Assembly (NCBI GenBank): GCA_004321885.1
Contig: SCQK01000013.1
Span: 96,001 to 160,000, forward strand
DNA length: 64,000 nucleotides
Direction of reading: 5' to 3'
Origin: Patescibacteria group bacterium
GTDB taxonomy: Bacteria > Patescibacteriota > Patescibacteriia > Magasanikbacterales > GWA2-37-8
The notes under the pieces are model-generated. The model saw nothing but the letters and a program-made list of their open reading frames with translations. It was not told the origin of the DNA and made no database searches. Positions 2,072-50,866 of the stretch are shown here, one piece after another. Within the stretch, counting starts at the first letter, position 1. Each line of letters starts with the position of its first letter. The translations under genes were made by a program, and so were the position numbers.

Positions 2072-2123
2072 ATAAATTAATTACCCCTCCTTAATCCTCC
2101 CCTTAATAAGGGGGGGGAAATTG

Positions 2124-3347
2124 TTATTCGTAACGCAAAGCGTCTATCGGGTTAAGGGCCGCCGCACGCCTGGCCGGATAATAGCCAAAGATTATGCCGA
2201 TGGCGGCGGAAACGCCGAAAGCCAACAAGATCGAAAACAGCGAAACTTTAGTCTGCAAAATACCCAGCCGGGTGACGCCGAATGAGATCAGCCAACCCAA
2301 AATTACGCCGATCAGACCGCCCAAAAAAGTAAGCGCCACGGCCTCGGTTAAAAACTGAAAATTTATCTCATTGCGCTTGGCGCCGATGGCTTTGCGCAAA
2401 CCGATTTCCCTGGTTCTTTCCGTTACCGTGGTTAACATCATATTCATAATGCCGATGCCTCCCACCACCAGCGAGATGCCGGCCACGGCGGCCAAAAGGA
2501 TCGTAAACGTCTGGGTAACGCTGGAAGCGGCGGCTACGATGTCGGCCTGGTTTAGGGTGTTGAAATCTGCCAATTGCGGATCGGAAATATTATGTCTGTT
2601 CAGCAACAAGCCGGTAATCTCTTGCTGTATTTCGGCCATTGATTGTGAATCTTTGGCTTGCACGCTGATGGTGGTAACGTAAGAATCACCGGCCAAAAAT
2701 TTTTGCGCCGTGCTGATGGGAATAAAAATCATGTCATCCTGACTGCCAAAACCGCCTCCGCCTTTTGTCCTGGTGATGCCGATAATCTTAAACTCTATGC
2801 CCCTGACGCGTATTACCTGTCCCACGGCCTGCACGCCCTCGCCAAACAAGTCATCGCGCGCCGTGGGCCCGAGCACCGCCACTTTGGACAGCCCGCGCAA
2901 GTGCTGTTCGGATATAAAATCTCCCTGGTCTATCTGTATATTTCGCACAGCCGGATAAGCGGGCACGGTGCCAACTACCGAGGTGTTGGTGTTCTTGCCT
3001 TTGGCCGTTACCTGATAACGGCCGGATATCTCGGGAGCGACCGCCTGGGCCAGGGTGATTTCTTTGATGATGGCGTCGGCATCGGCCTGGGTGAGAGTGC
3101 GGGCCGAGCCGCGCCCGGCGCTAACCTGAAAACCCGGCCCTCTCTGCGCCCCGGGCATTACCAAAATCAAATTGGAGCCGATTGATTGAATACTGTTTTG
3201 AATAGTGCCTTTGGCTCCTTCACCGATGGCGATCATGGCTATCACCGAGCTGATACCGATGACAATGCCCAGAATGGTCAAAAACGACCGCGCTTTGTTG
3301 GCGGAAAGGGCCATATATGTTTCCTGCATCATGTCGCTTGTTTTCAT
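2124..3347 (-). CDS. ABC transporter permease, MacB/FtsX family
   Basis: N-terminal TM, large periplasmic domain, C-terminal FtsX 3-TM domain; 4-nt overlap with the upstream ATPase gene. Confidence 0.85.
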   Translation of the reverse strand: MKTSDMMQETYMALSANKARSFLTILGIVIGISSVIAMIAIGEGAKGTIQNSIQSIGSNLILVMPGAQRGPGFQVSAGRGSARTLTQADADAIIKEITLAQAVAPEISGRYQVTAKGKNTNTSVVGTVPAYPAVRNIQIDQGDFISEQHLRGLSKVAVLGPTARDDLFGEGVQAVGQVIRVRGIEFKIIGITRTKGGGGFGSQDDMIFIPISTAQKFLAGDSYVTTISVQAKDSQSMAEIQQEITGLLLNRHNISDPQLADFNTLNQADIVAAASSVTQTFTILLAAVAGISLVVGGIGIMNMMLTTVTERTREIGLRKAIGAKRNEINFQFLTEAVALTFLGGLIGVILGWLISFGVTRLGILQTKVSLFSILLAFGVSAAIGIIFGYYPARRAAALNPIDALRYE

Positions 3348-4039: not shown

Positions 4040-5856
4040 CGGGTTTGCATCCGGAAAGTGCCGCCGCCCGCCCCTCCCGCGCCCCGATTGCCGCCTCCAC
4101 CAAACAAACTGGGGGCCTGCTGGCTTGGCGCGGCGGCCGTCTGGGTGATGGTTCTTGAAACCACCAAATCACCTTCCTTCAGTCCGCTTATAATTTCAAT
4201 GGAAGTATCGTTGGAAATGCCTGTCTCCACGTTTTGCCGGCGCGGCGGCGCAGCCGATATAACGCCCTGATTGCCGCCCGCCTGCGACACGCCGTCTAAA
4301 ATTTCCACGTAACTGGCATCGCCTTGCGTTTTTACGGCGGCCGAGGGAATTAGCAAAACATCTTGTTTCACGTCGGTGATTATGGAAGCCGAAACGCTCA
4401 TGCCCGGCTTGACTTGTTTGTCCTGCGTATCAAAAACGATTTTCACGTTATAGGTGACCACTCCCTGCGTTACCGTTCCAAGCGCATCAATTTCCGCAAC
4501 CTTGCCCGTCATATTCAAACCCTCTATGGCGTCAAACGTCAAAGTGGTTTTTTGACTCGGCTTGACTTTGGCCGCGTCAACCTCGTTTAAAGAAATCTCG
4601 GCCAGCTTCTGTTTGGTAATCAACGTGGCGGCCGCGACTCCGGCTGAAAGAGAATCGCCTTTTTTTACGGTCACCGAAGCCACCACCCCGTCAAACGGGG
4701 CGCGCACCGCGTAATCGGCCAGCTTTTCCCGGGCATCAGTCAAGGCATTCACGCGCTGGGCCACTGCCAGCTCCTGGGATTTTATATCCAACGGATCCGC
4801 CCCCCCCTTTAAGTCGGCCAGCGACAATGTCTTTTCCGTGATGGCGCGGTCGGCGCTGACAATACTATTTTTGGCGCTGTCTATGGCCTGCTTCGCCGAT
4901 AACAAATTCGCCAGCTGGTTGTTGACCTTGGCGGTGAAAGAATCAAGCGATGTCTGGTGGGTGGACACGGCCGCCGGAATCGTGATTCTAATCTGTGATT
5001 GGGCCTGTATCATGGCGTTTTGCGCCGCGTCCACAAAATCATTCATATTTTTCACCGCGTCGGCTATCAGCTTGGCTGTTTCATAAGTTTCAAAAATAAT
5101 ATTTTCCAAAGTGGAAGTGGAAGAGACGCGCGAAGACAATTTGTAGGCGTCAAAGGTAGTATTAAAATCAATGCGCGCCTTGTCATAAGAATTCACCGCG
5201 TCATTTTTATAGCTAACGTATTTGGGATAATTGGCATAATCGTATTGCGCCGACTGCTCCAGATACCAGTTTATGTTTGACTTGGTCGCGTCAAAAGTTT
5301 TGCCGTAAATCATGTCCTCCAATCCCGTCATTGTGGCGGGCAAATCCAAAAAAGCGGCGGCCACGTCATTGTAGCCGTCATCGTAAGACTTGTCTAAATC
5401 GCTTTGGGCCGTGACTTTCGCTTCCCTGGATTGTTCCAAGTCATTTTCCGCCTGCAAAACAGACAGCGGATCAGCCGCCTTTTTCAATTTATTCAAAGAC
5501 AATTTGGCCGAAGTTAGATTTGACTGGGCGTCACGCACGGCTTTCAAGGCGTCCTTGGCGTTAAGCGAAACCAAAATCGCGCCGGCCTTCACTTCTTGCC
5601 CCTGTTTTACCGCCACGTAAAGAACATCGCCCGATGCTTTTGCTTTGGCATCGGCCTGGTTGGACGCCGCTATCTGCCCGCTGCCGGTAATGGAATTTAT
5701 CAACGTTCCTCTTTCCGCGGCCGCCAAAACATATCTAATTTCCGTTTTACCGCCGGCCGCGGCTTTAATGATATAGTAACCTCCGAACGCGAGCGCGATT
5801 ATTATCAGCCCGAAAATTATTTTATGATTTTTCACGAATTGTAAAATTTTTCGCAT
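4036..5856 (-). CDS. HlyD/MacA-like periplasmic adaptor with a very long coiled coil and a Gly-rich C-terminal tail
   Basis: N-terminal TM; lipoyl-like half (LYVAVKQGQEVKAGAIL); roughly 300 aa of predicted coiled coil; beta-barrel half; C-terminal GGGGNRGAGGAGGG tail. Confidence 0.7.
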   Translation of the reverse strand: MRKILQFVKNHKIIFGLIIIALAFGGYYIIKAAAGGKTEIRYVLAAAERGTLINSITGSGQIAASNQADAKAKASGDVLYVAVKQGQEVKAGAILVSLNAKDALKAVRDAQSNLTSAKLSLNKLKKAADPLSVLQAENDLEQSREAKVTAQSDLDKSYDDGYNDVAAAFLDLPATMTGLEDMIYGKTFDATKSNINWYLEQSAQYDYANYPKYVSYKNDAVNSYDKARIDFNTTFDAYKLSSRVSSTSTLENIIFETYETAKLIADAVKNMNDFVDAAQNAMIQAQSQIRITIPAAVSTHQTSLDSFTAKVNNQLANLLSAKQAIDSAKNSIVSADRAITEKTLSLADLKGGADPLDIKSQELAVAQRVNALTDAREKLADYAVRAPFDGVVASVTVKKGDSLSAGVAAATLITKQKLAEISLNEVDAAKVKPSQKTTLTFDAIEGLNMTGKVAEIDALGTVTQGVVTYNVKIVFDTQDKQVKPGMSVSASIITDVKQDVLLIPSAAVKTQGDASYVEILDGVSQAGGNQGVISAAPPRRQNVETGISNDTSIEIISGLKEGDLVVSRTITQTAAAPSQQAPSLFGGGGNRGAGGAGGGTFRMQTR

Positions 5857-29784: not shown

Positions 29785-30022
29785 AATTATTTCCCTCTTG
29801 ACAACTCATACACAGGAGGTATGATAAAAGTAGACGAACCTTTTATTTCATACTGTATGGGGACGCGAAAGTGCGGGCGCGCCTAGGCTAACCGAGGCGC
29901 CTCTTTACAAGGAACCGCTGGCTGAAAAACAACCGGTTCGGGGCAAGAGTCCCGAAACAAGCGCTTGGCGCACGGATTGTTTTTCAACCCCAGGTCGGCT
30001 GGGTCTGCCCGCAGTGTAGAGT

Positions 30023-30051
30023 TAAAAACAGTCCCGACTTAGTCGGGACTG
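30023..30051 (-). terminator. intrinsic terminator after tRNA-Thr(GGU) (CAGTCCCGA-CTAAG-TCGGGACTG-TTTTT)
   Basis: perfect 9-bp stem plus a U-run immediately 3' of the tRNA. Confidence 0.5.
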
Positions 30052-30061
30052 TTTTGGCGCG

Positions 30062-30323
30062 AGCCGATGAGCGGATTTGAACCGCTGACCACCTCCTTCG
30101 CTTATACTTTATATTGCTATAAAGACTAGACTGTATCTTTGGCTTATCCTTTACCGGACTTAGCCACCCTTGTCAGTCGTTCGCCCGCGATTAGCGGGAC
30201 GGTCTTGTCCCAATTTATTTAGGGATATTAACCGTTATTCGGGATTCACCACGATGTTTCCATCGTGATGGGCGAGGCTTGCGGCTCACCATGGAGGTGC
30301 TCTACCAACTGAGCTACATCGGC
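30062..30323 (-). tRNA. tRNA-Thr (anticodon GGT) interrupted between nt 36/37 by a 189-nt intron (exons 30288-30323 and 30062-30098)
   Basis: joined exons give GCCGATGTAGCTCAGTTGGTAGAGCACCTCCATGGT|AAGGAGGTGGTCAGCGGTTCAAATCCGCTCATCGGCT, a canonical cloverleaf very close to E. coli tRNA-Thr(GGU). Confidence 0.75.
30099..30287 (-). ncRNA. group I-like self-splicing intron in the tRNA-Thr(GGU) anticodon loop
   Basis: 5' exon ends in U, intron ends in G; P1 can form with a U-G wobble (AUGGU|GAG with CUCGCC(C)AU); P2 hairpin CACGAUG-GAAA-CAUCGUG; internal ACAAGACCGUC resembles the Tetrahymena P3/P4 segment GCAAGACCGUC; ACAGUCUAGUC is a P7-like element. Confidence 0.6.
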
Positions 30324-30328
30324 ATTTT

Positions 30329-30988
30329 CTAATTTTTTTTATTTTCCAAAATCCTCATTAATTCATCTCTCATTTTTTTATTATGGTAATAAACTGTTAA
30401 AACTCCATGTCTACTTTTTTCGCGATAAGTACCTTTTCTAACAGACATTGTTATCGTGCTTTTGTAAAATTGATTTTTATTTACCTTTATTTGCCCCTTC
30501 CAAAACCTTAGCGCTTCAGTCACTGAAATGTCATTGAATAACTGAAGGCTAAACTTAAGGTCTTTTCTTCTAATGGAAAAAAATTTAACTAAAAAGTCAA
30601 TAAATTTCTTGACCAATCTTGGGTCAGTATTTCCCAACCTAACTGTGCATTTATCCGCTTTTGTTCCCTCCCCCCAGTATAACCCAAGTCCAAAACCATA
30701 TAAAATTCCCTCTTTTAATGTATGTGGATACTTTATGACAAATGGATCACCGTTTGGGTTATTTTTTTTGTAAATAGCTTCACTGATAGATCTACACGTA
30801 ATCGAATATTTTTCCATCCAATAACGTATTTTATTTACTGAACATTCGAAAATATTGGCAATTTCTTGTGCCGACTTTCCCTGATTTTGATATAATTTTT
30901 GCAAAACACCTTTGCTTATCATATCACAAATTATATCATAGCCGACTGAATAGTACAAGTAACCCCAAGTAGATAATATGGTTGTCAA
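30329..30988 (-). CDS. HTH-containing protein with a degenerate LAGLIDADG-like motif; putative free-standing homing endonuclease between two intron-containing tRNA genes (TTG start)
   Basis: N-terminal HTH (SAQEIANIFECSVNKIRYWMEKY); ILYGFGLGLYWGEGTKADKCTVRLGNTD resembles the single-motif LAGLIDADG core; the ORF opens inside the tRNA-Tyr 3' exon and ends 6 nt before tRNA-Thr. Confidence 0.4.
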   Translation of the reverse strand: MTTILSTWGYLYYSVGYDIICDMISKGVLQKLYQNQGKSAQEIANIFECSVNKIRYWMEKYSITCRSISEAIYKKNNPNGDPFVIKYPHTLKEGILYGFGLGLYWGEGTKADKCTVRLGNTDPRLVKKFIDFLVKFFSIRRKDLKFSLQLFNDISVTEALRFWKGQIKVNKNQFYKSTITMSVRKGTYREKSRHGVLTVYYHNKKMRDELMRILENKKN

Positions 30989-30997
30989 TGAACCTTG

Positions 30998-31291
30998 TGG
31001 GTGGAGTAGGATTCGAACCTACGAAGGCAGAGCCAGCAGATTTCATTTATCCAAAAGTTTCCTTCTAGCATGGACTATATCTTTATCCTATCCGCCAATC
31101 TGGCCGATAGGATACTCTGGTATCTAGTCTCTACGGCGCCCCCGACTTTGCCGGGGTTCCCACGGTATTAGCATGCCCGCCAGTTGGCGGATTTAGCTTT
31201 CACCGTTATCCCAGAGAGTTCATCCTAAAGTTACCTTTAGGAGCTGCGTTTCAACACAGTCTGCTCCAGTTGACCACTTTGGTATCCACCC
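30998..31291 (-). tRNA. tRNA-Tyr (anticodon GTA) interrupted between nt 35/36 by a 212-nt group I intron (exons 31256-31291 and 30998-31043)
   Basis: joined exons GGGTGGATACCAAAGTGGTCAACTGGAGCAGACTGT|AAATCTGCTGGCTCTGCCTTCGTAGGTTCGAATCCTACTCCACCCA: type-II tRNA with a long variable arm and an anticodon loop CUGUAAA identical to E. coli tRNA-Tyr. Confidence 0.8.
31044..31255 (-). ncRNA. group I intron (IC3-like, Azoarcus/cyanobacterial tRNA-intron type) in the tRNA-Tyr anticodon loop
   Basis: contains GUAGAGACUAGA, identical to the P7/P3 core of the Azoarcus tRNA-Ile intron; P3-like GCUAAAUCCGCC; 5' exon ends in U and the intron ends in G. Confidence 0.7.
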
Positions 31292-31310
31292 ATCTTCTTA
31301 AATTTTCTTG

Positions 31311-31382
31311 AGCCGCCTCAGGGATTCGGACCCTGGACCTACGGTTTACAAAACCGTTGCTCTACCGCTGAGCTAAGGCGGC
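31311..31382 (-). tRNA. tRNA-Thr (anticodon TGT)
   Basis: GCCGCCT-TA-GCTC-AGCGGTA-GAGC-A-ACGGT-TTTGTAA-ACCGT-AGGTC-CAGGG-TCCGAAT-CCCTG-AGGCGGC-T. Confidence 0.85.
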
Positions 31383-31443
31383 AATTATACCGCTGCCTGC
31401 CCGCCTTTGGCGGGAGCTAAGGCGGTGTCTGCGCGCGTTTGAC

Positions 31444-50602: not shown

Positions 50603-50679
50603 ACTATGAATATAATCTCATTCGCTCAGAACTGAATTAATAAATTAATTCAGTTCGCTCGCTCATTTCGATTATAAAC

Positions 50680-50704
50680 AAAAAATCTGTGTTTCCACAG
50701 ACTA
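50680..50704 (-). promoter_or_regulatory. candidate attenuator hairpin plus U-run inside the long rplJ leader
   Basis: minus-strand TCTGTGG-AAAC-ACAGA-TTTTTT about 80 nt upstream of the rplJ ATG; the leader is about 235 nt. Confidence 0.35.
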
Positions 50705-50837
50705 ATCCCGCCAAAGGCGGGCAAGAGCGCAAATCGACCTATACTGTCATTCCGGCTTCCGAGCCGGAATCCAGTTCTTTTTTGCACCTCGGCAGGTAAT
50801 TAAGCCCTTTCGGACACCTGCTGTCTATGGTGACAAT

Positions 50838-50866
50838 AATATACAGGAAGCATAAAAAAATGTCAA
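50838..50866 (-). promoter_or_regulatory. sigma70-like promoter TTGACA-17-TATATT for the rplJL operon
   Basis: consensus -35, 17-nt spacer, near-consensus -10. Confidence 0.4.

Follow-up and report, generated by a model that had tools for sequence, protein, structure and literature searches.

A group I intron interrupting tRNA-Tyr(GUA) between anticodon positions 35 and 36 in a Patescibacteria genome, in a tRNA cluster with a second split gene

The DNA analysed here (the window) is a 64-kb stretch, positions 96,001 to 160,000, of contig SCQK01000013.1 from a Patescibacteria group bacterium (assembly GCA_004321885.1). On its minus strand lies a canonical Thr-Tyr-Thr cluster of tRNA genes beside rpmG and tRNA-Trp, in which the tRNA-Tyr(GUA) gene is split by a 212-nt group I intron, the tRNA-Thr(GGU) gene is also split and an unannotated open reading frame (ORF) separates the two (Table 1). 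A first-pass annotation, made from the letters of the sequence without database searches, had recognized the split tRNA-Tyr and suspected a host of the candidate phyla radiation (CPR), in agreement with the NCBI record of a protein from the window as 'Patescibacteria group bacterium'. That protein is the product of this ORF and corresponds without a difference to NCBI EPN28_03575 [Patescibacteria group bacterium], with homologues in Magasanikbacteria, Moranbacteria, Jorgensenbacteria and Azambacteria.

Table 1 Features of the tRNA cluster and of the tRNA-Tyr intron, in the order of transcription.
Feature	Positions	Strand	Description	Basis
tRNA-Thr(UGU)	31310..31382	(-)	73 nt, 18 nt upstream of the split tRNA-Tyr	ARAGORN, Rfam
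tRNA-Tyr(GUA) exon 1	31256..31291	(-)	36 nt, 3' end ...GCAGACUGU; acceptor 5' strand, 3-bp D-stem, anticodon-stem 5' strand, loop C32 U33 G34 U35	ARAGORN -i, sequence
Group I intron	31044..31255	(-)	212 nt, first base G, last base G; between anticodon positions 35 and 36	RF00028, ARAGORN, covariation
P1	31244..31259	(-)	exon CUGU + intron G (31259-31255) with guide CGCAG (31248-31244); U35•G wobble at the 5' splice site
P2	31223..31242	(-)	8 bp, GUAA tetraloop L2 at 31234-31231; 7/8 pairs change on both sides
P3 5' strand	31211..31216	(-)	CUCUGG, partner 31120-31115; 4/6 pairs covary, 100% paired
P4-P5-P5a domain	31162..31206	(-)	P4 ACGGUG/UACCGU, P5 AGC/GCU, P5a UCCGCC/GGCGGG; P4 invariant, P5a covaries
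P6/P6a hairpin	31135..31161	(-)	P6 invariant; P6a 5/7 pairs covary, 74% paired
J6/7, P7 5' strand, J7/3	31121..31134	(-)	GUA, G-A(bulge)-GACUA, GAUA; guanosine-binding core, holds GUAGAGACUAGA
P3 3' strand	31115..31120	(-)	CCAGAG; makes the P3/P7 pseudoknot	covariation
P8 extended hairpin	31086..31112	(-)	4/7 pairs covary
J8/7 and P7 3' strand	31072..31085	(-)	UAAAGAUA and UAGUCC	sequence, covariation
P9	31051..31068	(-)	7 bp, GAAA tetraloop L9 at 31061-31058; 5/7 pairs covary
3' tail	31044..31050	(-)	AUAAAUG; last base ωG (31044), abuts the 3' splice site
tRNA-Tyr exon 2	30998..31043	(-)	46 nt, 5' start AAAUCUGC; A36 A37 A38, anticodon-stem 3' strand, long variable arm, T-arm, acceptor 3' strand, final base = discriminator A
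ORF	30329..30922	(-)	197 aa (30922-30332), unannotated; N-terminal helix-turn-helix (HTH) and LAGLIDADG-like domain; between both split tRNA genes
Split tRNA-Thr(GGU)	30062..30323	(-)	exon 1 30323-30288, intron 30287-30099, exon 2 30098-30062	ARAGORN -i
Hairpin + T-run	30024..30055	(-)	just after tRNA-Thr(GGU); candidate cluster terminator	read from sequence

ARAGORN without its intron mode found no tRNA-Tyr in the window. With the intron option (-i) it called tRNA-Tyr(gta) i(37,212) at 30997-31291, and neither mode returned any tRNA-Tyr in the window besides this split gene. The Rfam model RF00028 matched 31051-31263(-) over its full length (1-253) with 61.7 bits, the gathering score being 50, and an E-value of 3e-13. 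Ligated in silico, the exons form an 82-nt canonical bacterial type-II tRNA-Tyr with a 7-bp acceptor, a 3-bp D-stem, the loop CUGUAAA and a long variable arm. Compared with the tRNA-Tyr of L242, which is syntenic and intact, the product has 73 of its 82 positions (89%) in common and an identical anticodon stem-loop. A U(-1) and an ωG coincide at the 35/36 boundary alone, and the terminal ωG is kept in all 19 Tyr-hosted relatives. The precursor folds with -119.6 kcal/mol (z = -6.45 against shuffles), well outside what chance would give. The exons, strand and intron boundaries proposed in the first pass (212 nt, starting after U35 and ending in G) were thus exact, as were its statements that no contiguous tRNA-Tyr is visible and that the exons join into a complete type-II tRNA. 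Both searches by which it had suggested verifying the gene, RF00028 and an intron-tolerant tRNA finder, recovered it.

The secondary structure was assigned from the sequence and an unconstrained fold and then scored on an alignment of 11 Tyr-hosted precursors of the lineage of the window intron (clade A, below). All helices from P1 to P9 could be drawn with no non-pair in the window sequence. Standard pairs occupied 95.2% of the cells of the alignment, compared with 32.5-47.6% in controls with slid partners, and 43 pairs had changed on both sides, compared with 6-15 in the controls; none of 500 shuffles matched the observed values on any measure. Covariation was found in P2, P3, P5a, P6a, P8 and P9, the lower pairing of P6a being due to length differences among the relatives. 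P4, P6 and P7 did not vary, and in P1 the C-G, U-A, G-C and U•G pairs were unchanged in 11/11 relatives, the fifth pair covarying; such constancy of P1, P4, P6 and P7 is expected of a catalytic centre. The pairing of G-A(bulge)-GACUA with UAGUCC in P7 was likewise invariant in 11/11 relatives, and the P7 pocket has its guanosine-binding G-C pair beside the bulged A. The acceptor, D and anticodon helices of the tRNA were 100% paired, with compensatory changes. Preservation of helices by compensatory changes indicates that the intron is under purifying selection.

The two motifs on which the first-pass annotation had relied are present, GTAGAGACTAGA at intron position 122 and GCTAAATCCGCC at position 59. 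The segment GUAGAGACUAGA comprises J6/7, the P7 5' strand and the first part of J7/3. The stretch taken for 'P3-like', GCUAAAUCCGCC, has to be reassigned: it is the 5' strand of P5/P5a. Between P5 and P5a lies an internal loop, UAAA/CAU, that appears to resemble the 11-nt tetraloop receptor, the exact form of which, CUAAG/UAUG, was found in the relatives L026 and L062.

This anatomy suggests how the transcript might be spliced. The pre-tRNA-Tyr would share its transcript with tRNA-Thr(UGU), which lies upstream and probably opens the transcription unit. Pairing of C32-U33-G34-U35 with the guide CGCAG would form P1, in which the U35•G wobble would set the 5' splice site; CUGU at positions 32-35 is the element that P1 recognizes and is common to Asn GUU, Asp GUC and Tyr GUA hosts. 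The P3-P9 core would fold round the P3/P7 pseudoknot, probably braced by docking of the L9 GAAA on the receptor-like P5 internal loop and of the L2 GUAA on P8. An exogenous guanosine, bound at the P7 G-C pair by the bulged A, would attack after U35, the ωG would next occupy the guanosine pocket, and the 3'-OH of U35 would attack the 3' splice site, joining U35 to A36 and restoring the loop CUGUAAA. The CCA end would be added post-transcriptionally because exon 2 does not encode it.

We consider this element a bona fide group I intron, most probably self-splicing, that interrupts tRNA-Tyr(GUA) at 35/36 in a Patescibacteria genome. That the window copy itself splices is likely from its conserved anatomy and from experiments on its family, and the split gene is presumably the only tRNA-Tyr of the genome.

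For tRNA-Asn and tRNA-Asp of Patescibacteria, accurate in vitro self-splicing of group I introns at 35/36, which standard annotation misses, has been reported (Nakagawa et al., mSystems 2026, PMC13011429; preprint July 2025, bioRxiv 10.1101/2025.07.03.662931), and Patescibacteria hold 19 of the 28 introns at this position among 4,934 complete genomes (PMC13011429). Table 1 of that paper also lists a Tyr(GUA) 35/36 case, GCA_016699995.1. With the published set the window intron has in common the phylum, the site after U35, the U(-1)/ωG rule, a length of ~190-220 nt and the lack of an internal endonuclease gene, and many metagenome copies with Asn, Asp or Tyr hosts carry its 19-nt core unchanged. 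It differs in its genome and in a host that is a minority one, 1/22 there and ~13% of the clean anticodon loops among the matches listed here. The window intron is a new genome's member of an already published kind of 35/36 intron, Tyr host included. Because of the published Tyr(GUA) case, to which our survey adds ~20 copies, the first-pass view of a Tyr insertion as unusual for a CPR genome is out of date.

The subgroup label 'Azoarcus/IC3' given in the first pass held in part. In the tFind catalogue (Williams 2020, bioRxiv 10.1101/2020.01.27.920355), the known classes of split bacterial tRNA increase from 4 to 21, the same approach (RF00028, intron-aware ARAGORN and the U(-1)/ωG rule) is applied to the same type of object, and the classical bacterial tRNA introns, in Leu(UAA) at 34/35, fMet at 33/34, Arg(CCU) at 36/37 and Azoarcus Ile(CAU), are cited as IC3 by GISSD. 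The window intron is like these classical introns in its compact P1-P9 and in the GNRA loops on P2 and P9, and unlike them in host tRNA and insertion site. Aligned with an incomplete and provisional version of the Azoarcus sequence, it gave z ~1.7, which is not significant. The Azoarcus ribozyme presumably contains GUAGAGACUAGA, for which the first pass had cited a 12/12 match; a full-text literature search for the 12-mer with 'Azoarcus' returned no match. Classical IA introns have P7.1/P7.2 between P7 and P3', a trait absent from the window intron, in which the 4-nt J7/3 leaves no space for extra helices. The window intron has P2, a simple P5a, a single P9 and a 7-nt tail but no P2.1, P5abc, P7.1/P7.2 or P9.1, and a compact plan lacking these last elements defines IC3 (Michel and Westhof 1990; GISSD). 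The architecture is IC3-like, but published models class the family as IA: by best-scoring covariance model, 25/28 of the 35/36 introns were assigned to IA and no Patescibacteria tRNA intron to IC (PMC13011429). 'Azoarcus-type' at best describes the architecture.

Species-representative genomes were scanned with a pattern of ωG, tRNA-Tyr 3' exon and T-arm that is independent of intron subgroup, and nine true split tRNA-Tyr genes were found among the matches listed (119). Two pattern matches, L053 and L080, were rejected as introns, being tandem tRNA-Tyr genes. One group of split genes, clade A, carries introns 73-77% identical to that of the window and consists of L024 and L062, labelled 'Patescibacteria group', and L026, labelled 'Gammaproteobacteria'. 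The gene order of L026 equals that of the window over 31.4-36.1 kb, with 48-82% amino-acid identity; the record bears its gammaproteobacterial label in spite of this gene order, and of up to 82% protein identity, shared with the Patescibacteria window. The other group, clade B, has introns 45-49% identical to the window intron and comprises L013, L042, L061 and L107 (Omnitrophota), L045, labelled 'Patescibacteria group' with Omnitrophota-like exons, and L102, labelled 'Gammaproteobacteria'. The 240-nt intron of L102 (1987-2308) is alone among the relatives in having 31 nt inserted after the P7 5' strand and before P3', at the site of P7.1/P7.2 in IA.

The 19-nt core of the window intron, GCCGUAGAGACUAGAUACC (DNA GCCGTAGAGACTAGATACC), recurred without a change in at least 120 metagenome contigs, with groundwater as a frequent source. 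Hosts were assigned by exon logic, counting only loops of canonical sequence, and the clean anticodon loops among the matches listed were CUGU|UAA (Asn, 42), CUGU|CAC (Asp, 16) and CUGU|AAA (Tyr, 9); a His host was not established among them. Some Asn-hosted copies of 509-565 nt contain the end of an HNH-type frame (C-x-N-C-H) within the P1 loop. Longer HNH-bearing relatives occur in metagenomes (L128, L136, L155, L202, L208, L218, L224, L232, L235 and others), in tRNA-Asn wherever the host was cleanly resolved, which agrees with the published endonuclease-containing Asn introns. In a crude neighbor-joining tree without bootstrap, the nearest neighbour had the same host for 18/19 Tyr, 13/14 Asp and 23/30 Asn introns; the Tyr lineage of the window was nested in Asn/Asp-hosted diversity and the Omnitrophota-type Tyr introns formed a separate, distant lineage. 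A tRNA-Leu(UAA) intron at 34/35 in metagenome contig L226 was 79% identical to the window intron (z ~13) with the 19-nt core in common, so that close relatives sit in different tRNA hosts and at different insertion positions. A search for annotated relatives of the intron gave no plasmid match and one trivial match, to an unannotated phage record. A close relative with the M16-TIM-TPR-tRNA gene order of the window (L240/241) also has a split tRNA-Tyr, and tRNA-Tyr is intact at the same locus in Magasanikbacteria L242/243 (GCA_001783215.1); the intron is thus polymorphic among related genomes.

The first-pass annotation had missed both the split tRNA-Thr(GGU) and the ORF. The exons of the former join into a clean tRNA-Thr(GGU), and its 189-nt intron lies at position 36/37 by the U(-1)/ωG boundary, with a P1 of GGU|GAG and CUCGCC. 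This intron is divergent, scoring only 26.2 bits with RF00028, and ARAGORN miscalls the gene as Arg(gcg) i(35,189); a divergent Thr intron with the identical miscall has been described (PMC13011429, Table 1). Homologues of it were found in L240-243, L246/247 and L250-252. The hairpin that follows the gene was not detected by a consensus scan. Between this hairpin and rpmG, a G+C-rich, structured-looking spacer (29860-30020, minus strand) matched no Rfam family. At the other end of the cluster, a 12-mer at the 5' end of tRNA-Thr(UGU), CCGCCTTAGCTC (31370-31381, minus strand), is repeated 44 nt upstream at 31414-31425; the repeat may descend from a former tRNA 5' fragment or be due to chance. 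Farther away, RF00557 (53.6 bits) identifies 50671-50848 (minus strand) as the leader of ribosomal protein L10, which is usual for the rplJL operon.

The ORF starts 76 nt downstream of the split tRNA-Tyr. At curated cut-offs Pfam assigned its product to no family, relaxed E-values gave weak HTH matches, and the Pfam LAGLIDADG models gave no match to the window protein at E up to 10. LAGLIDADG_3 matched 6 of 42 homologues weakly (best E 0.0055), a family profile found no LAGLIDADG match among PDB sequences, and searches with Foldseek against PDB and with PDB profiles, NCBIfam and Pfam recognized the HTH part alone. Phage families with a homing-endonuclease annotation have HTH modules that match this one. 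The protein has an invariant block, G-L-Y-W-G-E-G ... R-L-G-N-(T/S)-D, in which G80, L81, Y82, W83, G84, E85 and G86 do not vary among the 42 homologues; the motif is kept in the Tyr-adjacent subfamily. From its sequence, we read G-L-Y-W-G-E-G as a putative LAGLIDADG-type helix motif with a conserved acidic residue.

Two subfamilies of the ORF were distinguished. The window type (1,105 hits at a cut-off of 1e-3) was in every case adjacent to tRNA-Thr(GGU) at its 5' end or overlapped that end, and the tRNA was split in 6/8 contexts found via the protein. The L163 type (667 hits at 1e-10) either ends upstream of tRNA-Tyr, at a distance of at most ~60 nt, or runs on into the tRNA gene; in the contexts found via the protein it lay 2-10 nt from tRNA-Tyr in unrelated neighbourhoods, and the tRNA was intact in 4/4. 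An L163-type ORF lies upstream of ~10-11 of the 19 split tRNA-Tyr genes. An obligatory tie of the ORF to a split tRNA-Thr(GGU) was rejected: the association is enriched (6/8), and the tRNA is intact beside the ORF in L244/245 and L248/249. Candidate split genes, intron-like nhmmer matches without an ORF directly upstream, were seen in L160 and L178. The conserved feature is an ORF beside a tRNA gene, the intron being optional.

Several peculiarities of these ORFs were recorded. In L013 (~5030-5650, minus strand), L045 (7145-7807) and L107 (~5066-5791, minus strand) the frame has no stop before tRNA-Tyr and crosses tRNA exon 1 into the intron, reaching J2/3. Several window-type homologues end at a TAG that is formed by positions 8-10 of tRNA-Thr(GGU). 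In L026, only a C-terminal remnant of the ORF (2099-2332, minus strand) is left directly upstream of the split tRNA-Tyr, which suggests that an ORF was gained and then decayed at the locus.

As for its function, a simple model in which the product cuts intron-less tRNA-Tyr at the insertion site was rejected because in L242/L243 a 68%-identical homologue adjoins a tRNA-Tyr that is intact and has an identical anticodon stem-loop, and because the Tyr-adjacent subfamily lies directly upstream of intact tRNA-Tyr in 4/4 contexts found via the protein. The ORF might instead encode a homing endonuclease, free-standing and directed at the flanks of tRNA genes in CPR and Omnitrophota, the double-strand breaks driving co-conversion of adjacent endonuclease-less introns ('collaborative homing'), an idea that we regard as speculative and rather doubtful. 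To our knowledge, collaborative homing has so far been described from phage genes. Alternatively, the product may be a domesticated DNA or RNA binder.

Some observations weigh against a self-splicing intron in the genome's sole tRNA-Tyr. We could draw no convincing P10 in the window copy, in which the C 5' of the guide G faces A36; the anticodon stem may substitute for it in holding the exons together. The presence of a LAGLIDADG-like gene so close downstream makes protein-assisted splicing conceivable, with its product serving as maturase for the Tyr intron, the divergent Thr(GGU) intron or both. Some mitochondrial LAGLIDADG proteins, such as I-AniI and the yeast bI3 maturase, do act in this way. 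We nevertheless find such dependence improbable here, since syntenic relatives have the Tyr intron without this ORF, L026 retaining a remnant only, and since the Asn- and Asp-hosted 35/36 introns of Patescibacteria splice in vitro free of protein (PMC13011429). The position of the Tyr-adjacent subfamily beside intact tRNA-Tyr in 4/4 unbiased contexts argues in the same direction, and L160 and L178 suggest that tRNA-Thr(GGU) can be split without the ORF.

A further observation is one of coverage: our view extends over 64 kb of a 175,928-bp contig, and the genome extends beyond this contig. An intact tRNA-Tyr could thus lie elsewhere and do the work, the window copy being a decaying relic that is unexpressed or unspliced. 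This has very little to commend it, given that all catalytic-core elements are intact and identical to those of relatives, that compensatory changes keep the helices and that an intact orthologue has 89% identity to the exons; the gene also occupies the canonical tRNA-Tyr locus, conserved in relatives with and without the intron. The identity of the host itself could be questioned if the boundary were off by 2 nt, as ARAGORN gives Ser(tga) or Phe(gaa) for L013, L024, L042, L045, L062 and L102, and 2-nt ambiguities in tRNA calls are documented in the literature (PMC13011429). A host such as tRNA-Phe(GAA) or tRNA-Ser(UGA) is hardly credible, for it would require an intron that does not end in G, and the exons have the long variable arm and 3-bp D-stem of tRNA-Tyr and match intact tRNA-Tyr genes. 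A self-splicing intron in tRNA-Tyr(GUA) at 35/36 therefore remains the reading that we favour.

The split tRNA-Tyr carries a lesson for annotation, being missed by standard tRNA finders; with its split genes missed, the genome would seem to be without tRNA-Tyr and tRNA-Thr-GGU and would score as less complete. That an essential, probably single-copy tRNA depends on its own ribozyme in a minimal genome is of interest and has already been published for this kind of intron. What is added here is that Tyr-hosted copies are common and form two distant lineages, of which one occurs in Omnitrophota-labelled contigs, that two split tRNA genes occur within one cluster, and that an uncharacterized LAGLIDADG-like gene family is physically linked to tRNA genes. 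The cluster with its two split tRNAs and the tRNA-linked ORF family may be the parts worth following up. The gene family bears on how tRNA introns devoid of an endonuclease persist and move: if its members were indeed homing endonucleases, this would explain the spread of tRNA introns without internal endonucleases, and the limited horizontal transfer inferred for them in the literature would have to be revised.

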